Shown: piece by piece, positions 30,650 to 46,614 of the stretch
How positions within the stretch are numbered: the stretch's first letter is position 1
How the letters are laid out: every line of letters starts with the position of its first letter
Virus record (IMG/VR): IMGVR_UViG_3300021962_000143
Location: 1 to 54,082 of that record
Length of the DNA: 54,082 nucleotides
Origin: a virus
Taxonomy: Duplodnaviria > Caudoviricetes
Strand: one strand, 5' to 3'
Notes under the pieces: model-generated
The model's input: only the letters and a program-made list of their open reading frames with translations
Told to the model about the DNA's origin: nothing
The model's database searches: none
Position numbers and translations under genes: made by a program

Positions 30650-31130
30650 TCTAGGACCGATGTCTGGACTCGCAGTAAAGAAGATGTCAGAGCAAAACAT
30701 AAATATGTGGCCTGACCAAATTGACCAGCCAAAAATGCCACGAGATATCTCTGTGTTAGATAGCGATGAGTTGAGCGCATTGTTTACCCAGCTTACAGCT
30801 TGGTCTAATTTTGTTGCAGGTCAGTTAGCTGCAGCTCAAGTTGATGAGCATGTACTGAACAAAAAGAAAGATTCTTTAGAGGCTCAGTTGTTTTTAGCTA
30901 AAGATAATTCAAAGGTTAAAGGTGAGAGAGTAACTCTTATCAAAGCACAAGTTGCTGCTGACCCAAAGATTATGGATTTAGAAAATCAACTTACTCACGC
31001 CTATGCATACCGCAAAATGGTTGAGGTTGTAGCAAACAACTTTGAACGAGATGTAGCGTTGGTATCTCGTGAAATTACTCGTCGTACAAATGACTTTCGT
31101 GCAACACGAAAGGATAAGTTCTCCGCATGA
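30642..31130 (+). CDS. UvsY-like recombination mediator (helical)
   Basis: Coiled-coil, KAQVAADP, VSREITRR; in the recA cluster; SD GGAGG before GTG 30642. Confidence 0.55.
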   Translation: MLNLGPMSGLAVKKMSEQNINMWPDQIDQPKMPRDISVLDSDELSALFTQLTAWSNFVAGQLAAAQVDEHVLNKKKDSLEAQLFLAKDNSKVKGERVTLIKAQVAADPKIMDLENQLTHAYAYRKMVEVVANNFERDVALVSREITRRTNDFRATRKDKFSA

Positions 31131-31666
31131 TTATTGGCCTAACAGGTTATGCACAGTCAGGTAAAGACAGCGTTGCAAAAACTCTTGTAGAGCATTATGG
31201 GTTTACCCGTCTTGCGTTTGCCGACAAAATACGAGACATGTTGTACGACTTAAACCCAATGGTAAAAGATGGATTTAGATTACAAGGAGTAGTTGATGCT
31301 TATGGTTGGGACCAAGCAAAGGTTTTGTTTCCAGAGGTAAGAAAAGATTTACAAGCATTAGGAGTTAGTGCAAGAACACATTTAGACCCAAGCGTTTGGG
31401 TAAATGCTGTATTACGACAGATGCGAGATGAAGATAACTATGTAATAACTGATGTTAGGTTTGAGAATGAAGCAATTGTTATTAAACAAGCACAAGGAGA
31501 ACTGTGGCGTGTAAAACGCCCAGGAGTAGGGGCAGTAAACTCTCACGTATCTGAGTCAGATTTAGATGGTTATCAAGTAGATAAGATTTTAAGCAACGGA
31601 GGAACGCTTGAGGAACTAGAGTTGCTAGTCCACACAAGAATGGACTCCTACAAACATGGCAACTAA
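31127..31666 (+). CDS. Deoxynucleoside monophosphate kinase
   Basis: IIGLTGYAQSGKD, AFAD, LQALG, ITDVRFENE, H.SE. Confidence 0.93.
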   Translation: MIIGLTGYAQSGKDSVAKTLVEHYGFTRLAFADKIRDMLYDLNPMVKDGFRLQGVVDAYGWDQAKVLFPEVRKDLQALGVSARTHLDPSVWVNAVLRQMRDEDNYVITDVRFENEAIVIKQAQGELWRVKRPGVGAVNSHVSESDLDGYQVDKILSNGGTLEELELLVHTRMDSYKHGN

Positions 31667-37041: not shown

Positions 37042-37419
37042 ATGGCTAAAAAAACTTCAAATCGTAATGCTGGCCCTCTAATTGCAGGTCGTGTACCATT
37101 TCAGGGTTCATCAATGCGTGGAGAAGAAGGTGGACCTCGTTCACTAGGTTGGTTGCATGGGACCCAGTTTGGCGAGCAAATTAAAGCATTGAAGAATCCT
37201 GATTACACAGTGATGTCTTATGGAACACCAATCGCTGTTCACCACGAAGAAGGTTGGCATTACCCAGATGTTTCTCACAGCCCAACAACTGGAAAGCATC
37301 AGTCAATTGTTCGTGGAGCATTAAACATTAAGAACGCACGTGAACAAAAGATGGAAGCACGTGCAGCAAAGCGCAAGGCAAAGCAGGAAGAAGCAGACCA
37401 GAAGTTGTGGAATCAATAG
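37042..37419 (+). CDS. Hypothetical phage protein (SYxTPIA...SxTTxKHQ motif family)
   Basis: YTVMSYGTPIAVH..W..SPTTGKHQ. Confidence 0.65.
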   Translation: MAKKTSNRNAGPLIAGRVPFQGSSMRGEEGGPRSLGWLHGTQFGEQIKALKNPDYTVMSYGTPIAVHHEEGWHYPDVSHSPTTGKHQSIVRGALNIKNAREQKMEARAAKRKAKQEEADQKLWNQ

Positions 37420-37429
37420 GTTATTTAAA

Positions 37430-37864
37430 ATGCCTATTTCTAATAGTCAGTTTGGAATGGTTAGGAACACTAAGACTAAAGTTACTGTTCCTTCTAATCC
37501 TGGTGGTTTTGGTGGTGCTCCTAAACCAAACATAAGTATGCCAACCCCTAGAGTTACGGCTATACCAACTCCCAGAATGACACCAACATCAACATCAACC
37601 CCTAGAGTTACGGCTACACCAACTCCACAAGTTACCTCTACCCCAAGTATCCCAAACAATCCTGAGTTTCGTGGAAGTTATCCACCAGCAACTAAACTCA
37701 ATACACCTTCAACATCAAGAGTTTCTACTCCAACTCCAGCGTCTACTCCAACTCCAATGAATACTCCAATGACTGTTCCGACTCCAATGTCTACTCCAAC
37801 AGCTAGCCCTACACCAAGTTCTGTAAAAACTCCTACAATCGCTATGTTTGGTGCAGGTAGATAG
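37430..37864 (+). CDS. Pro/Thr-rich (PT-repeat) protein
   Basis: MPISNSQFG start; duplicated acccctagagttacggcta; PTP repeats. Confidence 0.55.
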   Translation: MPISNSQFGMVRNTKTKVTVPSNPGGFGGAPKPNISMPTPRVTAIPTPRMTPTSTSTPRVTATPTPQVTSTPSIPNNPEFRGSYPPATKLNTPSTSRVSTPTPASTPTPMNTPMTVPTPMSTPTASPTPSSVKTPTIAMFGAGR

Positions 37865-37908: not shown

Positions 37909-38457
37909 ATGAGTAACGTACCTATTCTGGGCGAAAAAAAGATGGACAATGAACCGATGTTTCGGTTGTTGTACTGTCTTGTCTGTCAGTCTTTAGACGA
38001 ACTACCTCCTTACGACGGTGAACCAGAGCAAGACCATTTGTTGGCTATTGCTTGTGAAGCACACGTTTTTCCATCAGGTGAGCCACACAAAGGCAAACTA
38101 TTTGTATTGCCATTACGTGCTTGGGCAAAGTCTGAGTCTAAAAAAGAAATCATTCGCCAGATTAAAGGCGGAGGTTCTAAAGGACTTGCAGAAGTTGATG
38201 ACACTTTTTATGACTCTCGCTCTATGTTCCTAGAAGATGCAATGAAGTGCTACCAACAGCACAACAAGCCAAAAGACGGTTGCAGCGACTGGCAGAACAA
38301 AGAGAAGTTACTTATTCCTAATACCGCAAAAGAACGTAAAGCAGAGGGCATGGGTCGTTACCAGGATGAAGCAGGTCCAAAAACATACCTATGTAACTTC
38401 TGTCCTGTATCCATCGCTGTAAACCAGCGCAAACAAAAATTGTTAGGACTAAACTGA
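37909..38457 (+). CDS. Cys/His-rich metal-binding protein
   Basis: SD AAGGAG; CLVC..H..H, C..H..C..CNFC. Confidence 0.75.
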   Translation: MSNVPILGEKKMDNEPMFRLLYCLVCQSLDELPPYDGEPEQDHLLAIACEAHVFPSGEPHKGKLFVLPLRAWAKSESKKEIIRQIKGGGSKGLAEVDDTFYDSRSMFLEDAMKCYQQHNKPKDGCSDWQNKEKLLIPNTAKERKAEGMGRYQDEAGPKTYLCNFCPVSIAVNQRKQKLLGLN

Positions 38458-38744
38458 TGAGCGAAGAGACCCCAAAGATTCAAGCAGCATACTCTGTAGT
38501 CATTAAAGCCGATGGCACACTTGAGACAATTCCCGTAACAGAGGGCGTAATGCGTACTGCTACTACCTACGACATTTACCAAACCAGTAAGCAATTAGTC
38601 TCTGAGATTGATGACTTCCTGCTAGCTGACCGTGTTGCTAAAGCCGTAGTTGATGCATTGCAGCCTGTAAGCCCAAGTGAACATCAACGTGCCAAAATTG
38701 CAGAAGCATTATCCGAACGTGGGATAGACCCAACAAAGGCTTAA
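38457..38744 (+). CDS. Hypothetical protein
   Basis: TGATG coupling. Confidence 0.65.
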   Translation: MSEETPKIQAAYSVVIKADGTLETIPVTEGVMRTATTYDIYQTSKQLVSEIDDFLLADRVAKAVVDALQPVSPSEHQRAKIAEALSERGIDPTKA

Positions 38745-38751
38745 TACGCCC

Positions 38752-38757
38752 TAAACT
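38752..38757 (+). promoter_or_regulatory. -10 element TAAACT of a probable leaderless transcript
   Basis: TANNNT, 6 nt, ATG 38764; no SD. Confidence 0.5.
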
Positions 38758-38763
38758 AGGGCT

Positions 38764-39696
38764 ATGTTTAGAAACTTAGGAAGTAACTCAAACCCTGTAC
38801 ACATCCAGGGCAGTGCTACTTCCTATTTTTCTGCACCTGAATCAGAGTTAGACCCTAAGTTATTTTCAGGAACAACTTTAAAAGGATGGGTTCGTAATGG
38901 AATCCTTCACCTTCTTTTTGGGTTCTTAAATGAGCAGTACCGTCACCCAAACTTATGGGCACACGTATGGATTGCAGGCTCAGGAGTCTCATACCAATGG
39001 TCAGCAGCACGTCAGCCTGGGGACTTAGATGTTCTTATTGGAGTTAACTACATCCAATTCCGTAAAGCACACCCAGAGTTTGCAGGACTTGGCGATGTAG
39101 AAATCAGCCGTATGTTAAACGAGGATTTTCGTAATCACCTGCAGCCAGAGACTGAAAACTGGAATGGGTACGAAGTTACCTTCTATGTAAACCCAGGAGC
39201 TACAGACATTCGTTCTATTAACCCGTATGCAGCTTACGACCTAACTCACAATGAATGGACAGTTCATCCAGCACAAACAACTGCACCAGAGAATCGTGTG
39301 TGGGATGAAGTTGCAAAGCGAGACCTGTCTGTAGCCACAGAGATTGTAACTCGCTATACAAAGGCGCTTACCGATGTACAGGGCGCACAAAACGACCCAG
39401 CACGTCGCAATGCTGAGGCAAGACTACACGCAGCCCTAATGCAAGGTTCAGCCATGTATGAGGACATTCACGGAGCAAGAAAGTTTGCGTTCCGTAAAGA
39501 AGGTCAGGGTTATGCAGATTTTTATAACTATAGATGGCAGGCTGGGAAGAAGTACGGAACAGTGCCTGCCCTACGAAAGATGTCTGAGTACTGGTCAGCA
39601 TACAAAGCACAACAGGCAGAAGAGACTTACGGTGTTGAACTGCCAGATACTCAGACCCTAATTAGAAGAGCGGCAACGTACAGAGCAAAGGGATAA
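38764..39696 (+). CDS. Pol-beta superfamily nucleotidyltransferase
   Basis: hGS motif WIAGSGVSYQW, DxD in GDLDVLI, third acid in YEVTFYV; helical C-domain. Confidence 0.8.
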   Translation: MFRNLGSNSNPVHIQGSATSYFSAPESELDPKLFSGTTLKGWVRNGILHLLFGFLNEQYRHPNLWAHVWIAGSGVSYQWSAARQPGDLDVLIGVNYIQFRKAHPEFAGLGDVEISRMLNEDFRNHLQPETENWNGYEVTFYVNPGATDIRSINPYAAYDLTHNEWTVHPAQTTAPENRVWDEVAKRDLSVATEIVTRYTKALTDVQGAQNDPARRNAEARLHAALMQGSAMYEDIHGARKFAFRKEGQGYADFYNYRWQAGKKYGTVPALRKMSEYWSAYKAQQAEETYGVELPDTQTLIRRAATYRAKG

Positions 39697-40185
39697 ATGA
39701 ACATACTCGTATCACTAGACGGCGTACTAAGTTCGGAATCAGGGGAACCAATCCGTGCAGGAGTGGCGCTTTACTACGCCCTAAATATCAATAACCGTGT
39801 TGCCATCATGACCAGTCGTGACGAAGCAGATGCAAAGCATTGGTTACAGTCGCACGGCATTATTAACTATGACGACCTAATTGATTCTTCTTTTGCACTT
39901 GAGGGTGAGGACCTAAAGAAGAGACAGTTCACTCTTTCACGTTCCAGGGCCCCGATTGAGATGTATGTAGATGCTGACCCAAGTATGTGTGCCTGGGTTT
40001 TTGAAGAGCAAAGAGTTCCAACAATCCTCTTTAGCCATCCAGGGTTTGCTTTAGTTGAGAACCGCCCAGATGCACCTAAAAAGGTACGACGCTGGTCTGA
40101 CATTGAGGAATCTATAAATAGAGTTAACATAGCTCGCTCAGAGCAAGCTCAAAAGCCAAAAGAAGCTGAACTCTGGTCTGATTGA
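39697..40185 (+). CDS. HAD-fold protein with degenerate motif I
   Basis: NILVSLDGVL (S at the nucleophile D position), IMTSR, WL..HGI..YD.L, YVDADP. Confidence 0.65.
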   Translation: MNILVSLDGVLSSESGEPIRAGVALYYALNINNRVAIMTSRDEADAKHWLQSHGIINYDDLIDSSFALEGEDLKKRQFTLSRSRAPIEMYVDADPSMCAWVFEEQRVPTILFSHPGFALVENRPDAPKKVRRWSDIEESINRVNIARSEQAQKPKEAELWSD

Positions 40186-41690
40186 TGCGTATCATCTTTA
40201 GCGGGGCTGAAGTAGGCTCAAACCGCAATCTTCTTTTTGACTCAAAAGTTGAGTCAATGGGACTCAACTTTTGGACTCTACGCAAGCGTGGATTGCCCAC
40301 AACCAAGCTCTGGTTAATTAGCGAGCACTTTGACCCAGAAATAAACGTCTTTATTGAATCAGGTGCAGCTCAAGCTGACAAAGCAGGATTGTCAAAAGAA
40401 GAATTACTTTCTTTAGCCGCTGACTACCAGGAGTTCCTGGTAAACAACAGCGAAAGAGCAACAGCCTTTATGGAGTTTGACTCTATGGTTCTGGGTAAAG
40501 AGTGGGTGGAAGCCCAGCGACCTTTCTATGAGCATGACCCAAAATTATGGGTAGTTTGGCATGAGGAATACGGTCTTCCATCCCTCAAACTTATGTCCCA
40601 GAAGTACAAGAACGTGGTCATACCCAGCGCTGAGATTGAGTCTGTAACAAGCCTTGCAGGGCTTGCCAGAGGCTACCAAAGGCAGTTTGGGACTTCCTAC
40701 CACGCCTTAGCCTGTGCCAAGCCAGACAACCTACGGCAGATACCATTTAGCACTGCAAGCACATTGTCGTGGTTATCCCCAATGCGTAGAGGCGAAACTA
40801 TCGTGTGGGACGGGTCGCAAATCAAGCGGTATCCAAAGCGCATGAAAGACCAAGCAAGACCCCGTTACAAGAGCATCGTACAGAAGGCAGGGCTAGACTA
40901 TTTGGGGTTTAGCCAAGATAACACCCTTGAAGCGACTAGAGTTGCAGTCTGGTCATATCTACAGTTGGAGTCATCCATGGACAAGAAAACACCTAATTTC
41001 CACATCATTGATGGGGGTAAAGAAGGTCAAGTATCTGATAACAGTGATACCCCACTCATGAGTGGTTTGATGGAATTAGGGGGGGTACTTTCTGATAACA
41101 GTGCCTCTGAGATGCGGAAAGTTGAGCGTCAAGAAGTAGTCCAAAGAGACCCTTCAGAGGTTCAAAACCTACCTGTTTTCGGGTACAAGATGAAGACTGT
41201 TGTTGAAACAGACGACAACGGCAAAGACATTTTGATGGACATCCCAGTCGTACAAACCCAGCAAACGTCTTTAAGGCAATGCGACACTTGCTTCGTTGCT
41301 GCCAACTGCCCAGCCTTCAAACCCCAGAACACCTGTGCTTTTAACCTGCCAATTGAGGTGAAGACTAAAGACCAACTGAAGGCATTGATGACCTCAATGA
41401 TTGAAATGCAGGGTCAAAGAGTCGCTTTTATGCGTTTTGCTGAGGAAATGAACGGTGGTTACGCAGACCCAAACGTTTCTCAAGAAGTTGACCGCCTAAT
41501 CAAAATGGTTAAAGAAGTTAATGACATGGCATCGGACAAAGAGTTCATCCAGATTACAGCTCAGCGTCAAGGCTCTGGTGGAGTCCTCTCAGCCATCTTT
41601 GGAGACAAAGCTCAAGCTCTGAGAGAGTTGCCTGAGACTCTAAAAGAAGATACCGTAACTAAAATTATCCAGTCTTCAATAGAAGACTAA
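40185..41690 (+). CDS. TGT/DpdA-like TIM-barrel protein (degenerate) fused to a Cys-cluster and helical domain
   Basis: VFIESGA, EFD, VVWH, YHALA..LRQIPFSTASTLSW resemble TGT-like DSGA / H.LG / S.DS.SW; CDTC..NC..TC in the C-terminal part. Confidence 0.5.
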   Translation: MRIIFSGAEVGSNRNLLFDSKVESMGLNFWTLRKRGLPTTKLWLISEHFDPEINVFIESGAAQADKAGLSKEELLSLAADYQEFLVNNSERATAFMEFDSMVLGKEWVEAQRPFYEHDPKLWVVWHEEYGLPSLKLMSQKYKNVVIPSAEIESVTSLAGLARGYQRQFGTSYHALACAKPDNLRQIPFSTASTLSWLSPMRRGETIVWDGSQIKRYPKRMKDQARPRYKSIVQKAGLDYLGFSQDNTLEATRVAVWSYLQLESSMDKKTPNFHIIDGGKEGQVSDNSDTPLMSGLMELGGVLSDNSASEMRKVERQEVVQRDPSEVQNLPVFGYKMKTVVETDDNGKDILMDIPVVQTQQTSLRQCDTCFVAANCPAFKPQNTCAFNLPIEVKTKDQLKALMTSMIEMQGQRVAFMRFAEEMNGGYADPNVSQEVDRLIKMVKEVNDMASDKEFIQITAQRQGSGGVLSAIFGDKAQALRELPETLKEDTVTKIIQSSIED

Positions 41691-41705: not shown

Positions 41706-41852
41706 ACTTTCTGTAACTTGAAACAGGGTTCACCCTGTGCAGATGTATTTTGAAGTAAACAAAGTTAACAAGTGCGTGGTAGGTTTCGCCACGGCACAAT
41801 AGGTCTCCCTGTTGAGGGGTATTTACATAAACACAGAAATGGTGGTAAGGAA

Positions 41853-43889
41853 TTGGGTCTGTTCTCTTTTGAATTAACAAATGATTTCGTCGCTTCGTAC
41901 AAGGACAAGAAGGCTCCTTTTGGGTACAGGGATGCCGCTGGAAACTCAGTTGGAGAGATTACTTTTCTCCGTACCTATTCACGCCTAAAGGCAGATGGTA
42001 CTAAGGAGACTTGGGTAGACGTGTGTGAGCGAGTCATCAACGGCATGTACTCCTTGCAGAAAGACCATGCCAAAAGTCAGAGACTACCTTGGTCTGATGC
42101 CAAGGCAGCAGCCTCTGCTAAAGAAGCATTTGACCGTCTCTTCAACTTGAAGTGGACTCCACCTGGACGTGGACTATGGGTAATGGGTACCCCCCTCGTT
42201 AATGAGCAACGCAACTCTGCTGCCTTGCAGAACTGCGCTTTCGTATCAACAGGGTCAATGGTCAAGACTGACCCAGCAAAACCATTTGCTTTTCTAATGG
42301 AAGCATCAATGCTTGGTGTTGGTGTGGGCTTTGACGACAAGGGTGCAGATAAGGACTTCACAATTTATGAACCAAAAGAAACTTACGAGTATAAAATCCC
42401 TGACACCAGAGAAGGATGGGTTGAATCAACAGCCGCCCTCATCAATGCCTACCTCAAGCCAGATACGAAGGCTCCAGTATTTGATTACGAAGAAATCCGC
42501 CCAGCAGGTGCGCCAATCAAAACCTTTGGTGGAACTGCAGCAGGACACGAACCTCTCTTAAGATTACATAACCACATCAATAAGATGTTTGCTGGTCGTG
42601 CAGGTCAGAAGTTAACTAAGACCGACATTGCAGACATCGGAAACATGATTGGTGTCTGTGTTGTATCAGGCAACGTTCGTCGCTCTGCAGAACTTCTTAT
42701 TGGTCAGATTGATGACGAGAACTTCTTAAACCTCAAGAACCCAGAGGTCTATCCAGAGCGCAACTCTTACGACCCTGCTAACCCAGGTTGGGCTTGGATG
42801 TCTAACAACTCTGTAGAAGCAAAGGTTGGCTCAGACTTCTCAAAGATTATTGACGGAATCGTTCGTAATGGTGAGCCTGGCGTTGTATGGATGGATGTAT
42901 CACGCAAGTATGGTCGTCTTATTGACCCACCTAACAACAAAGACTGGCGCATCGCTGGATACAACCCTTGCGCTGAACAATCTCTTGAGTCATACGAGTG
43001 TTGCACACTTGTAGAAACATATTTAAACCGCCATACAGACCTTGAAGACTTTAAGCGCACATTGAAGTTTGCTTATCTGTACGCAAAGACTGTGACGCTT
43101 CTCCCAACGCACTGGGAAGAGACAAACGCAATTATGCAACGCAACCGCCGTATTGGAACTTCTATTTCAGGAATCGCAAACTTTGCCGACAACAACGGAT
43201 GGACTGTATTGCGTGACTGGTTGAACAACGGATACGAAGTCATTAAGAAGTATGATGAATCTTATTCTGAGTGGCTTGGAATCCGTCAGTCAATCAAGAT
43301 GACTACAGTAAAGCCATCAGGAACTGTATCTATCCTTGCTGGTGAATCTCCTGGAGTGCACTGGGCATCAGGAGGAAAGTTCTTTAACAGAGCAATTCGT
43401 TTTGCTAATACTGACCCAATGCTTCCTTTGTTTAAGATGGCTAACTATAGAGTTGAACCTGCATCTGAATCTCCTGACACAACTAGCGTTGTCTTCTTCC
43501 CAATTGAAACTAACGCAAAGCGTGCAGAGAAAGAAGTTTCAGTTCACGAAAAGGTTGCACTTGCAGTTGTAGTTCAACGATACTGGTCAGATAACTCTGT
43601 CTCTGTAACTGTTACCTTTGACCCTGAGAAAGAAGCAGACTCTATTGCTTCCATCTTGCACATGCACGATGGTCAGCTAAAGACGATTAGTTTCTTGCCT
43701 ATGGGTAATGCAGTTTATCCTCAGATGCCTTACACACAGATTACTTCTGAAGAGTATGAAGAAGGTTGCATGAGTCTAATGCCTATTGACTTATCAGGTG
43801 TTTACGCAGGTATGGCAGCCGATGCTATCGGAGAGGCTTACTGCACAACAGATGCTTGTGAGGTTAAGTTAATCAAGGACAGTCAATGA
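41853..43889 (+). CDS. nrdJ: Class II (adenosylcobalamin-dependent) ribonucleotide reductase
   Basis: RTYSR, PPGRGLW, NCAF, GNVRRSA, NPCAEQ, VKPSGTVS, C-terminal YCTTDAC; TTG 41853 preferred over 41772 because of SD AAGG. Confidence 0.95.
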   Translation: MGLFSFELTNDFVASYKDKKAPFGYRDAAGNSVGEITFLRTYSRLKADGTKETWVDVCERVINGMYSLQKDHAKSQRLPWSDAKAAASAKEAFDRLFNLKWTPPGRGLWVMGTPLVNEQRNSAALQNCAFVSTGSMVKTDPAKPFAFLMEASMLGVGVGFDDKGADKDFTIYEPKETYEYKIPDTREGWVESTAALINAYLKPDTKAPVFDYEEIRPAGAPIKTFGGTAAGHEPLLRLHNHINKMFAGRAGQKLTKTDIADIGNMIGVCVVSGNVRRSAELLIGQIDDENFLNLKNPEVYPERNSYDPANPGWAWMSNNSVEAKVGSDFSKIIDGIVRNGEPGVVWMDVSRKYGRLIDPPNNKDWRIAGYNPCAEQSLESYECCTLVETYLNRHTDLEDFKRTLKFAYLYAKTVTLLPTHWEETNAIMQRNRRIGTSISGIANFADNNGWTVLRDWLNNGYEVIKKYDESYSEWLGIRQSIKMTTVKPSGTVSILAGESPGVHWASGGKFFNRAIRFANTDPMLPLFKMANYRVEPASESPDTTSVVFFPIETNAKRAEKEVSVHEKVALAVVVQRYWSDNSVSVTVTFDPEKEADSIASILHMHDGQLKTISFLPMGNAVYPQMPYTQITSEEYEEGCMSLMPIDLSGVYAGMAADAIGEAYCTTDACEVKLIKDSQ

Positions 43890-43975
43890 AAGTTAGATGT
43901 TTGAAGTGCTTTGAGGAGTTTGAAGAACTCCCAAAAGAATCTTCTGATGGCATCTGCTACTCGTGTAGAGATTAG
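43886..43975 (+). CDS. 29 aa zinc-finger microprotein (not in track)
   Basis: MKVRCLKCFEEFEELPKESSDGICYSCRD; overlaps the nrdJ stop; SD AAGGA. Confidence 0.55.
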   Translation: MKVRCLKCFEEFEELPKESSDGICYSCRD

Positions 43976-44015
43976 AAAAAGCCCCTATAGTAAATAAACT
44001 ATAGGGGCTTTTTTT
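43976..44015. terminator. Bidirectional intrinsic terminator at the convergence of the two arms
   Basis: aaaaagcccctatagt-aaataa-actataggggcttttttt. Confidence 0.9.
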
Positions 44016-44409
44016 ACTTCTTGTTTTTAGGTGGGTTTCTTTTATGCTTTTTCTCTAGTTGTGCTTTTCTGTTGCGAGCACTTCTTTGCTTAGACTCAAC
44101 CTGTGCTTGTGCTGCTGCTGCCTGTTGTTGTTGGCGTAGTTCAACATCTTTCATTGGACGGCTTGTGTCTCTGATTACTGTAATAATCTTTGTTGCTGGT
44201 CGGTCTGTAACAATCTTAATGTGATGGTCTAGATTGTTTGGGTCACGATGCTCGGTAATCATTACATTAGGGTCAGTCTTTGACGGCATACTCGTTCCAT
44301 GTTTAGCCACGTGCTTTACTGTTTCCCAATCTACATCTCTTTCCCAAGAACGGTCTCCTGCATGAAGACTTGCTTGTGGGTTTAAGATTAGGTGTTGGAT
44401 TGCTGACAT
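44014..44409 (-). CDS. DUF4258-like (RNase/toxin-like fold) protein with Q/K-rich tail
   Basis: HAGDRSWERDVDWETVKHV.KHG...IKIV....KIITVI. Confidence 0.6.
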   Translation of the reverse strand: MSAIQHLILNPQASLHAGDRSWERDVDWETVKHVAKHGTSMPSKTDPNVMITEHRDPNNLDHHIKIVTDRPATKIITVIRDTSRPMKDVELRQQQQAAAAQAQVESKQRSARNRKAQLEKKHKRNPPKNKK

Positions 44410-44716: not shown

Positions 44717-45262
44717 CTACGACTTTTGCACCTTTGGAAACTTCTTTAACCAACGCTTTACAACGCTAGTCTCAGTTCCTTTCCATGCGCTCCAATCTTT
44801 ACCACCATTGCTCATGTGATAAGCAATTTTGGCATTAACCACAGGGTTGAACAGTTCAGCATTAGAAGCCAAATTGAACTTATCACGCCTTTCATCACCT
44901 AATGAACCAAGCATGTTTACTTGGAATAGACCATAGGAGTTGTCTCCTGTCTTACGATTACCGTTGTGTGATAGCGGATTACCATGTGATTCTTTCTTTG
45001 CAATAGCCCATGCTTCTTTTAGGTCTTGACCTTTGAAGCCTACGGCACTGAGAAGTTCTACTAACTGGTGGTCAGTAAGACTATCTGCATTGACATACTT
45101 GACTAATGCATCTACTTGCTTTTCTTGCTGGCTTGTTAGTGCTTCGGCTTTTGTTGGCGTAAAGGCTGGCGGTAACCCGACAACCATTTGAGCAAACATA
45201 AACATCGCTGTAAACAGCGACCCGAACACCATCTTGCCTCTTTTTGTTAGTTTCATAATCAC
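44717..45262 (-). CDS. Lytic transglycosylase (SLT/lysozyme-like) with N-terminal signal/anchor
   Basis: AWAIAKKES.GNP, SYGLFQVN, LFNP..NAKIAY, DWSAW; hydrophobic N-terminus ending in AEA. Confidence 0.85.
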   Translation of the reverse strand: MIMKLTKRGKMVFGSLFTAMFMFAQMVVGLPPAFTPTKAEALTSQQEKQVDALVKYVNADSLTDHQLVELLSAVGFKGQDLKEAWAIAKKESHGNPLSHNGNRKTGDNSYGLFQVNMLGSLGDERRDKFNLASNAELFNPVVNAKIAYHMSNGGKDWSAWKGTETSVVKRWLKKFPKVQKS

Positions 45263-46614
45263 TCCAAATAGTCATTCACAACCTCGGCTGCGTTTGACTG
45301 CTGGTGGCGGATACGATGCAGGTATCTCTCCGTAGTTACGATTGACTGGTGACCTAACCGCTCTTTGACCTCATGCACATCTACCCCGTTCTTTAACAAC
45401 TGGGTAGCGTTAGCGTGCCGTAGGTCGTGAGTAGTGGGATACCAACCAATCCCTGACTTGTTGATGGCTTCGTTCCAAATGGCTCGCCACTTGTCACGAG
45501 GTAGGTGTCTTTCGCTAAGGCTTTTGCTATGGCTTTTGCTAGGGCTTTCGCTTTTGCTAAGGCTTTTGCTAGTGCTTTTGCTAAGGCTTTCTACCTTGCC
45601 CTTTCCCTTGTCCTTTCTATAGTGATTGCGGTACTCCCTAACCGCTTCTTTACACGCCTCACACCTACAACCGCCGACATTGTATGAATACGCCGTTGCG
45701 TGTTGGAATCTCCTGCTTCCAATGGTGTAAGGCTTCCCAACCACGCTTGTGGTAGGGCTTTCTATTTTACCCTTCTTCTCAACCAGGTGCTTTGAGAAGA
45801 TAAGGTCTTCTTTTGCTAGGGCTTTTGCCTTTACAAACTTCTTTATCTCTGCTATTAGAGCTGAGCTCAGCACAACAGTTCTTTTATTTCCGTTCTTTGT
45901 AGCTGGCACAACGAGAAATCTTGTCCCCTCGGACTTTGTCCCTGCGGGCTGGTATGCGTAGCCAACATCTGAGACTGTGCGCCTGACATAGACCTCTTTA
46001 GATTGGAAGTTAAAGTCTTTGACTCTGAGTTCTGTGGCTTCTCCGTATCGGCAACCAGAGGCTATGAGAAACTGTGCTAAAAGACGGCTTCCGTCTGTGG
46101 GTAAGTTCTTTAAGATAGCCTGAAAGTCTTTAGGCTCTAGGGTGTAGGTAGGGTCAGGCTTGGGCGTGCTTAGTCTTATGCGGTGGGTGGGGTTTGTGGC
46201 TATCGCTTCGTCATCTACGGCGAGCCTGAACAGAGAACCTAAAGAAGTCTTTAGGTGTGAGATTGTGCTTGGGCTAATCCCTTGATTTGCGAGATTATCA
46301 AACAGGGTCTTTATGTCTTTCTTGGTGATTGCGGAGATGCGCTTAGACCCAAAAGAAGGTTGGGCATACTTCTTTAGCAGGGTAATGTAGTTCTTGCGGG
46401 TTATGACTCGTATGTCATTCGCCGCCGTAAGTTTGGCTAAGTAATCGTTGAATGTCTTTTGGTTTTCGGGCATTAGATTAAACTCGCCTTCTTCGGCAAG
46501 TAATCCAGCGTTAAGTGCTTTAGCCCTAGATGAGAAAGTGCCTACGGATTTGACTTTTCCGTCTTGGCGGTAATAGGCGGTAAATCGCCCTTTGCGTTTA
46601 ACTGCGTAAGCCAT
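45259..46614 (-). CDS. int: Tyrosine recombinase/integrase with zinc-finger and SKS-repeat insertion
   Basis: SGCRYGE, TKNG, HDLRH, LGH, TERY (complete R-K-H-R-H-Y); SAM-like core-binding region. Confidence 0.93.
   Translation of the reverse strand: MAYAVKRKGRFTAYYRQDGKVKSVGTFSSRAKALNAGLLAEEGEFNLMPENQKTFNDYLAKLTAANDIRVITRKNYITLLKKYAQPSFGSKRISAITKKDIKTLFDNLANQGISPSTISHLKTSLGSLFRLAVDDEAIATNPTHRIRLSTPKPDPTYTLEPKDFQAILKNLPTDGSRLLAQFLIASGCRYGEATELRVKDFNFQSKEVYVRRTVSDVGYAYQPAGTKSEGTRFLVVPATKNGNKRTVVLSSALIAEIKKFVKAKALAKEDLIFSKHLVEKKGKIESPTTSVVGKPYTIGSRRFQHATAYSYNVGGCRCEACKEAVREYRNHYRKDKGKGKVESLSKSTSKSLSKSESPSKSHSKSLSERHLPRDKWRAIWNEAINKSGIGWYPTTHDLRHANATQLLKNGVDVHEVKERLGHQSIVTTERYLHRIRHQQSNAAEVVNDYLE
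45509..45593. repeat. 12-bp tandem repeats with a GCTTTTGCTA core inside the recombinase
   Basis: Cores at 45520, 45532, 45550, 45562, 45574. Confidence 0.9.

Follow-up and report, generated by a model that had tools for sequence, protein, structure and literature searches.

A DpdA-like barrel protein without its catalytic nucleophile in a conserved phage gene block

The DNA analyzed here (the window) is the 54,082-nucleotide IMG/VR record IMGVR_UViG_3300021962_000143, a tailed-phage sequence (Caudoviricetes) with an estimated completeness of 54%. A plus-strand gene ending at position 41690 of the window encodes a barrel protein of 501 residues when read from the ATG at 40185, or 502 residues when read from the TTG at 40182. 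We show that this protein belongs to a clade of DpdA descent that has lost the catalytic nucleophile, occurs without QueC and FolE in the genomes examined, is strongly conserved, and is tightly linked to a gene for a HAD-like protein. We tentatively favor the reading that the protein is an exapted DpdA that no longer exchanges bases and has been kept as a nucleic-acid- or base-binding subunit.

A DpdA-like barrel with altered catalytic positions

By its modeled fold, the 501-residue protein is a TGT-superfamily barrel. An AlphaFold2 model computed from 128 sequences had pLDDT values of 94-98 for residues 1-260, followed by a disordered, low-confidence linker and a C-terminal domain of moderate confidence; the model, together with profile and fold matches, delimits a DpdA/TGT-type (beta/alpha)8 barrel at residues 1-268 (40185-40988, plus strand). 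When the barrel was compared with the 48,161 solved chains of the VIA structure comparison set, the best match was the archaeosine TGT (ArcTGT, 1iq8; Z 18.0, 257 residues aligned, root-mean-square deviation (rmsd) 3.4), followed by DpdA (7ui4; Z 17.3, 260 aligned), Cap10 of the Cap10-CdnD complex (9ntn_B; Z 16.8), bacterial TGT (3unt; Z 16.1) and QTRT2 (6fv5; Z 15.0). All five of these best matches belong to the TGT superfamily, and unrelated barrels reached Z 13.4 at most. A Foldseek search with the same model returned TGT proteins in all of the top 50 positions (best E 2e-6). A preliminary description of this DNA, made from the sequence alone, had called the barrel TGT-type only tentatively and had allowed that it might not be one; the fold matches bear the assignment out, and the profile comparisons sharpen it to a relative of DpdA1.

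A DpdA1 profile, built from the DpdA of phage 9g and eight IMG/VR relatives, aligned by hhalign with the N-terminal domain of the family over 258 columns in global mode (99.1%, E 6.8e-18) and again in local mode (98.4%); two cross-controls gave 0.2%. The family member of Bacillus phage BCD7 detected the characterized DpdA1 phages (Iggy, Vid5 and Queuovirinae) by tblastn with E values of 1e-3 to 3e-6. These comparisons indicate that the 501-residue protein descends from phage DpdA and is, by profile, a relative of DpdA1. When the family profile was set against one E. coli Tgt sequence, hhalign aligned the DSG loops without reaching significance, and tblastn of E. coli Tgt against phages detected bacterial-type tgt genes only. 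The protein gave no matches in Pfam, PADLOC, NCBIfam or, by sequence or by family profile, PDB, and BCD7 gp021 gave none in Pfam and PDB; in PHROGs, the window protein matched phrog_887 ("queuine tRNA-ribosyltransferase") with an E value of 2.3e-60. The barrel gene is single-copy in each of five close-relative genomes, and PF01702 had no matches in these genomes or in the window.

The C-terminal domain (41172-41690, plus strand) is composed of a four-cysteine (Cys4) cluster at 41280-41336 and a helical tail. The cluster, C-x2-C-x5-C-x8-C, follows the low-confidence linker and is near-invariant, being kept in 122-123 of 124 family members, and the model places helices at residues 395-450 and 488-500, so that both elements noticed in the preliminary description are borne out. 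The structural zinc site of TGT has the motif CxCxxC...H, from which the Cys4 cluster, a possible metal site, differs in its spacing.

The catalytic positions were read against Salmonella DpdA, in which, as stated in the available part of PMC10164549, Asp95 is the general acid/base, Asp130 recognizes the base and Asp256 is the nucleophile; the same text reports the three residues to be invariant in TGT and DpdA, and guanine exchange to be lost in the D95A and D256A mutants. The counterpart of the nucleophile in Z. mobilis TGT is Asp280, which follows strand 8. In phage DpdA, which exchanges guanine in DNA for a 7-deazaguanine, the nucleophile makes the covalent bond of the enzyme-DNA intermediate. 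In the hhalign alignment, F-L-D-S-G-A of the 9g protein falls on F-I-E-S-G-A of the window protein, replacing the general acid by Glu, and S-C-D-S-S-S-W falls on T-A-S-T-L-S-W, replacing the nucleophile by Ser. Between these, V-L-D-G aligns with E-F-D, so that the base-recognizing Asp is retained, and C-F-H aligns with V-W-H. With numbering from the ATG at 40185, Glu58 (40356-40358) occupies the general-acid place and Ser192 (40758-40760) the nucleophile place. The D-to-E and D-to-S changes that had been pointed out earlier are thus real; they lie in the motifs IESGA and STASTLSW and fall on the general-acid and nucleophile positions.

Conservation of these residues was followed in a close set of 81 sequences (the window and 80 IMG/VR relatives, barrel identity 73-95%), in a wider set of 124 (the window and 123 full-length representatives out of 150 listed, from 818 clusters at 50% identity), and in a set of 132 formed by adding eight sequences to the wider one. 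Glu58 was present in 81/81 members of the close set, where the nucleophile position held Ser in 78 and Thr in three, and the conservation of the substitutions, which the preliminary description had proposed as a check, was therefore confirmed among close relatives. Among the 124 sequences the general-acid position was D in 76, E in 16, Y in 15 and H in six. The nucleophile position over the 132 sequences held Asp in three, S in 59, A in 18, T in 16, G in 14, M, Y, L or I in four each, V in three, H in two and N in one. The base-recognizing Asp (D99 from the ATG; alignment position 100) was kept in 99/124 and in the whole close set. Eight residues, E9, E58, S59, G60, E97, D99, W125 and H126, were invariant in 81/81, and acidic residues at strand ends are conserved family-wide at position 10 (E in 116 and D in five of the 132), E98 and E/D205.

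Aspartate was found at the nucleophile position in only one of the 123 sampled representatives, and the Asp-keeping sequences are those of BCD7, Bacteroides phage BS162P1 and P0255. The BCD7 gene, gp021, stands directly after genes for FolE, QueC, QueE and QueD, and BS162P1 carries a QueC gene just upstream of the barrel gene and a FolE gene elsewhere in the genome. QueC and FolE were detected in none of eight genomes with a degenerate barrel, namely G001-G007, which comprise five close relatives (four of them complete, ~100 kb in length and with terminal repeats), G006 and G007, and Streptomyces phage GiJojo. QueD was absent from the five close-relative genomes; QueE was not searched for. The lack of que and folE genes in the window, noted in the preliminary description, thus extends to relatives whose genomes are mostly complete.

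Both Asp-keeping phages match the family HMM (BCD7 with an E value of 1e-59, BS162P1 genes 87 and 88 with 1e-25 and 4e-26), and they share with the window protein (all PHROG 887) the two-domain build, a G-x-E after strand 1, an E-x-D, an invariant Trp and the Cys4 domain. They differ from it in keeping D59 and a D-S-x-T-W motif, in standing beside QueC, FolE, QueD or QueE genes, and in having no homologue of the nucleotidyltransferase (NTase) or HAD-like families that accompany the window barrel; the HAD-like family was present in 3/3 degenerate-barrel genomes versus 0/2 Asp-type genomes. The BCD7 and BS162P1 members are probably working DpdA enzymes. In BS162P1 (L107:3848-5480) the barrel is encoded separately from the Cys4/helical domain, by neighboring genes that directly follow the QueC gene, and in BCD7 both domains are in one protein with ~240 extra residues between them. 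BCD7 gp015 (L002:11634-12491), annotated as a nucleotidyltransferase, lies 3.4 kb downstream of the DpdA-like gene and has a sub-threshold RlaP match (E 0.0025); it was rejected as a homologue of the window NTase (BLASTP E 0.38). Scans with the distant representatives P0321, P0377 and P0277 gave no IMG/VR loci.

The gene block and its partner proteins

The barrel gene is the last of five tightly packed genes on the plus strand. The first encodes a Cys/His-rich protein of 182 residues, probably zinc-binding (37909-38457); its stop codon is overlapped by the start of a gene for a 95-residue protein, p95 (38457-38744). After a gap of 19 nt come the genes for a Pol-beta-type NTase of 310 residues (38764-39696) and, directly abutting it, for the HAD-like protein of 162 residues (39697-40185), which the barrel gene overlaps by 4 nt. 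The preliminary description had seen three coupled genes here; their strand, abutment and overlap are as described, but a unit of three is too small, because the Cys/His and p95 genes belong to the same string. Its further suggestion that the Cys/His gene might belong is borne out by the conserved position of that gene in the blocks of relatives.

Close-locus counts were taken from the 80 IMG/VR loci wherever enough flanking DNA was available. The HAD-like gene was found in 74/74, the NTase gene in 54/54 and the Cys/His gene in 42/42 loci, and all 58 loci that hold the four genes kept them intact and in the same order, more than would be expected by chance. Inserts of more than 200 nt separate the HAD-like and barrel genes in only four of 79 loci (75/79 had 200 nt or less), and the NTase and HAD-like genes in 20 of 73, often by ~500-1000 nt (L003-L082). 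The distribution of the block extends from phages of freshwater to those of Streptomyces, with flanks that differ between lineages. The order Cys/His-(p95)-NTase-HAD-like-barrel recurs in L085-L088, and Cys/His-NTase-HAD-like-barrel in the distant locus L109. In GiJojo, the Cys/His gene is gene 175, the NTase gene 178 (40% identical), the HAD-like gene 179 (24%, E 4e-13) and the barrel gene 181 (34%); here the block is interrupted by an endolysin gene and by an extra gene, 180, which has no homologue in the window. Synteny, another point that had been put forward for checking, therefore holds well beyond the closest relatives. In L084, the locus of genome G006, an open reading frame for 152 residues (L084:7049-7507) lies between the Cys/His and HAD-like genes; it had no Pfam match and contains an S-G-H-H-R-A-A-A stretch that we take, as a lead only, to resemble a ParB/Srx-type motif. 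Bacterial DpdA acts with the ParB-like protein DpdB.

The HAD-like protein begins MNILVSLDGVL, with Ser at the place of the motif I nucleophile. Among 27 aligned members the first position of motif I was S, A, T, N, E or V, and Asp only in L086 (26/27 lacked it), and the second Asp of the motif was nearly invariant; among close relatives the first position was S in 67, N in six, T in two and A in one. L084 has both positions changed (T-L-E). Candidates for motifs II-IV, picked by eye, are IMT-S, K/R-R-Q and V-D-x-D-P. The Atlas feature scores were weak (0.92 for NIF-type and 0.90 for IIIB HAD clusters), as were the Pfam HAD matches of two of the 27 members (best E 0.029); three of the 27 matched the PHROG polynucleotide kinase, five matched phrog_1238, and gp179 of GiJojo is annotated "hydrolase". 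The window protein itself matched nothing in Pfam, PADLOC, NCBIfam or, by sequence, PDB, and hhalign against E. coli GmhB gave 0.2%, a comparison with one sequence that has little power. A HAD fold for the 162-residue protein is therefore weakly supported: of the degenerate HAD protein proposed in the preliminary description, SLDGVL with its Ser was confirmed, and the fold rests on weak scores.

From its motifs, we accept that the 310-residue protein is a Pol-beta-type NTase and that its active site is intact. It has A-G-S-x13-G-D-L-D-V-L and, on the next strand, Glu137, which from that place in the model may be the third metal ligand. Gly72, Ser73, Asp87, Asp89 and Glu137 were unchanged in all 65-66 ungapped close relatives, in agreement with the intact GS/DxD reported before. 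Taken with E58 in 81/81 and S192 in 78/81 barrel sequences, the retention of these residues points to purifying selection on both the barrel and the NTase. An N-terminal T-S-Y-F-S...L-D-P-x-L-F motif ahead of the core is invariant, and the C-terminal helices carry many invariant basic residues. The AlphaFold2 model (pLDDT 87.4) consists of a small alpha/beta core (about residues 45-160) and a C-terminal helical bundle, the latter of which dominates structure searches. Compared on its own, the core matched minimal NTases in a middling range: 1ylq with Z 6.8 (89 of 93 residues aligned, rmsd 3.2), HI0073 with Z 5.7 and MNT antitoxins with Z 5.0-5.2. Foldseek against PDB gave weak rows for CD-NTases (E 0.027-0.15), ANT(6) and CCA-adding enzymes, with E values of 0.016-0.3 overall and none at or below 0.001, and the protein matched nothing in Pfam, PADLOC, NCBIfam or, by sequence, PDB. 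Relatives of the model in BFVD are uncharacterized proteins of uncultured phages (346-884 residues, E 1e-7 to 1e-9), one of which is labeled an amidoligase enzyme (E 1.2e-8).

The Cys/His protein has C23, C26, H52, C114, H118, C125, C162 and C165 invariant in 10/10 aligned homologues, including that of GiJojo. No family of Pfam, PHROGs, PADLOC or NCBIfam matched it, and Atlas returned nothing usable (best score 0.77); the gene is present in L084-L088, L109 and GiJojo. The p95 gene is present in close relatives and in L085-L087 and was not detected at the GiJojo locus; its PHROG match, to a transcriptional regulator, is weak (E 0.0019).

The preliminary description had placed the three genes behind a single leaderless promoter, and this was not established. 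A sigma-70 scan found no promoter before 38764, and its total for the window was below the shuffled expectation; the gap before the NTase gene is 19 nt, and the TAAACT hexamer within it (38752-38757, plus strand), 6 nt before the NTase ATG, fits a possible -10 of a leaderless transcript and nothing further. The upstream sequences of relatives comprise 17 distinct ones, of which 14 have TAAACTA and two others TAGACT amid variable flanks. TAAACT-N6-RTG is not a recurring promoter word, the motif not being repeated above chance in the window. A leaderless start at 38764 is plausible, though unproven, because TAAACT is conserved and leaves no room for a ribosome-binding site; read-through from upstream genes is equally possible. 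A hairpin at 38748-38762 was rejected as a structured element, as it is neither conserved in relatives nor repeated above chance.

The block sits in the replication and nucleotide-metabolism region of the window. Upstream lie genes for a DnaB-like helicase, a second helicase, a DNA polymerase, a UvsX-like recombinase, a Cas4-type exonuclease, a dNMP kinase and a RuvC-like resolvase. The dNMP kinase gene is at 31127-31666 (phrog_139, E 7.4e-44); such kinases go with modified-nucleotide pathways in some phages and also occur without them. An open reading frame for 174 residues at 37340-37864 (plus strand) has many Pro/Thr/Ser repeats (TPTP...); it overlaps the gene before it, at that gene's end, and may be low-complexity coding sequence or no gene. 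Downstream of the block, a class II (B12-dependent) ribonucleotide reductase (RNR; 41772-43889, plus strand) was identified by Pfam and PHROG matches. The RNR gene, a neighbor outside the deeply conserved core, adjoins the block in 74/74 close loci; nothing in GiJojo or G007 matched it, and in G006 the match was weak, partial and far off. A strong terminator-like hairpin with a 19-bp stem and a T run (43973-44016) closes the plus-strand gene string. Just beyond it, on the minus strand at 45259-46614, is a gene for an integrase-like protein of 451 residues (phrog_1, E 1.1e-57), which is unexpected in a phage of the ~100-kb class whose complete relatives have direct terminal repeats. A blastn search of the region against phage records gave no match.

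Alternative readings of the altered barrel

If the barrel is an exapted DpdA, it could no longer run the covalent double-displacement exchange of bases and would be retained as a DNA- or purine-binding module, with the base-recognizing D99 and the Cys4/helical domain kept. In the replication phase of infection it might form a working complex with the HAD-like and Cys/His proteins. The NTase, where present, would be the only conventional catalytic center, and would nucleotidylate what the barrel delivers, whether nucleic acid, protein or small molecule; this could serve the marking of phage DNA or counter-defense without 7-deazaguanine. Two of the fold matches, QTRT2 and Cap10, are precedents for a TGT fold used for binding. 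The preliminary description had proposed two altered proteins serving as readers for one active transferase; two catalytically altered proteins do stand beside an intact NTase, and the service they were supposed to render it is not established. Anti-defense, DNA marking or sensing, as a function of the block, may be suggested only in this conditional way. A complex prediction for the NTase, HAD-like and barrel proteins scored 0.00 without controls and weighs neither way.

Several observations weigh against the exapted-DpdA reading. The fixed Glu58 and the invariant E97, D99, W125 and H126 would fit a pocket that still does chemistry equally well, and that the barrel binds a partner, DNA or a base is something we infer from sequence. 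In L109 the base-recognizing Asp is Asn and the W-H pair is gone, so that even the pocket is not universally kept. The complete 100-kb genome G006 (locus L084) holds the barrel, HAD-like and Cys/His genes and has the NTase gene nowhere, so that the NTase cannot be required everywhere for what the barrel does. In P0255 the Asp motif is kept; no genome context was found for this sequence, its scan having recovered distant relatives only and not its own locus. Finally, the overall collinearity of these phages means that part of the gene linkage is inherited.

An unlikely reading, to which the first of these points nevertheless lends weight, is that the barrel is still an enzyme by other chemistry, either a hydrolytic glycosylase that takes guanine or a modified purine out of DNA, or an exchanger of a base supplied by the host that works through another nucleophile or dissociatively, with the HAD-like protein and the NTase processing its product or substrate. 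The active-site face listed above is invariant throughout the close set, the acidic residues at strand ends are conserved family-wide, and the barrel is modeled at very high confidence, all of which speaks for this reading. However, the two Asp-to-Ala mutations described for Salmonella DpdA abolish exchange (PMC10164549, available part). The residue that replaces the nucleophile varies among S, A, T, G, M, Y, L and I, which argues that it is not itself catalytic, and about one representative in four has Y, H, N or T at the general-acid position. Moreover, E10, E98 and E205 are also found in the Asp-keeping BCD7 protein, and hence are not compensating changes.

Less likely still is that the block reflects inherited adjacency only, that is, separate core genes of an old phage lineage with unrelated roles in replication and nucleotide metabolism and no functional system. 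The phages do share a layout: the DNA polymerase is 68% (G007), 45% (G006) and 42% (GiJojo) identical and is similarly spaced from the block, and the block genes diverge from GiJojo about as the polymerase does (40% for the NTase, 34% for the barrel and 24% for the HAD-like protein). The insertions within the block, in 20/73 loci and in GiJojo with its gene 180 and endolysin, and the loss of the NTase in G006 are also in keeping with loose neighbors. On the other hand, the start and stop codons of the HAD-like and barrel genes abut or overlap in nearly all loci (75/79), the order persists in 58/58 close loci as well as in L085-L088, L109 and GiJojo, with changes in the RNR and endolysin genes at the flanks, and the HAD-like family co-occurs with loss of the Asp, neither being seen in the two Asp-type phages.

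We consider quite improbable an elaboration of the exapted-DpdA reading in which, in a phage lineage both large and environmentally abundant, a matched pair of pseudoenzymes, one from DpdA and one from a HAD phosphatase, would form with the zinc protein and the NTase a new marking or counter-defense machine; the disabled DpdA would flip out and hold a guanine or modified purine in DNA, and the NTase would nucleotidylate the site or a bound partner. Such a chemistry, if true, would be absent from the modifications of phage DNA that the literature consulted describes.

The least probable reading is a Cap10-like role, in which the barrel would bind the NTase or another protein, perhaps through a protein-linked nucleobase, and steer a signaling or AMPylating NTase, possibly as a mimic or decoy of type IV CBASS. 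In type IV CBASS, according to the available part of 10.1101/2025.04.06.647259, the TGT-family protein Cap10 holds the modified N-terminus of the CD-NTase, so that a TGT fold can be redirected to a protein. Here too a TGT-family barrel and a nucleotidyltransferase are encoded together, Cap10 is one of the fold matches tied at the top, an invariant N-terminal motif precedes the NTase core, and CD-NTases appear among the weak Foldseek rows. Nevertheless, the profile kinship of the barrel is DpdA1-like and not Cap10-like. Cap10 keeps its catalytic and base-reading Asp residues and needs the QueC-like Cap9 (same source, available part), whereas the window family has lost Asp and no QueC-like gene accompanies it in any of the eight genomes. 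The NTase is not clearly a CD-NTase, its core being nearer to minimal NTases, and G006 lacks it altogether; furthermore, Cap10-CdnD belongs to a bacterial defense system. As for tRNA repair, an option of the preliminary description to which no evidence points, we set it aside because the relatives of the barrel are DNA enzymes, the block has no kinase or ligase, and motif I of the HAD-like protein is degenerate.

Relation to known DpdA systems and implications

The closest characterized system is phage DpdA1, the DNA guanine transglycosylase of Enterobacteria phage 9g and Pseudomonas phage Iggy, which inserts preQ0/G+ precursors. The window protein resembles it in its ~258-column barrel, the DSG-type loop, the base-recognizing Asp, the F/W-H pair, the ...S-W after strand 8 and the location in the replication region. 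It differs in having Ser for the nucleophile Asp, Glu for the general acid and an added Cys4/helical domain of ~170 residues, and the genomes examined in its clade lack FolE and QueC (0/8) and QueD (0/5); its gene is linked instead to the HAD-like, Cys/His and NTase genes. Bacterial DpdA, whose exchange was assayed with DpdB and ATP (PMC10164549, available part), offers a parallel in needing an NTP-using partner for its action on DNA; that partner, however, is DpdB and not a Pol-beta NTase, and all three Asp residues and the TGT-type zinc site are kept. QTRT2 offers a different parallel, a TGT fold kept as the non-catalytic subunit of murine TGT (title of PDB entry 6fv5). QTRT2, however, has a catalytic paralogue as its partner, whereas the window family is single-copy and its genomes have no PF01702 protein; the sequence kinship of the window barrel is to DpdA1 and not to QTRT2.

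We found neither this block nor a DpdA clade without the nucleophile described in the literature, although the supplementary phage tables of Hutinet et al. may include members. The available text of Hutinet et al. 2019 (PMC6884629) notes that singleton DpdAs group separately and that their function may have diverged; that of Hutinet et al. 2023 (PMC10516641) defines DpdA1-4 and treats DpdA as the signature of 7-deazaguanine DNA. Neither main text, as far as available, mentions BCD7 or Streptomyces.

Homologues of the barrel protein carry the labels "queuine tRNA-ribosyltransferase" or "dpdA-like" in GenBank and PHROGs. Given the loss of the nucleophile in a large branch and the absence of QueC and FolE from the eight genomes, these labels would wrongly predict modified DNA, and the phages so mispredicted would include many abundant freshwater and Streptomyces phages. 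Since cultured relatives exist among BRock-like Streptomyces phages, the exapted-DpdA reading is directly testable. As judged from sequence, the family would clearly exemplify how a DNA-modifying enzyme can outlast its chemistry and become linked to new partner genes; in a widespread group of ~100-kb phages, an old enzyme of DNA modification seems to have acquired a new use.

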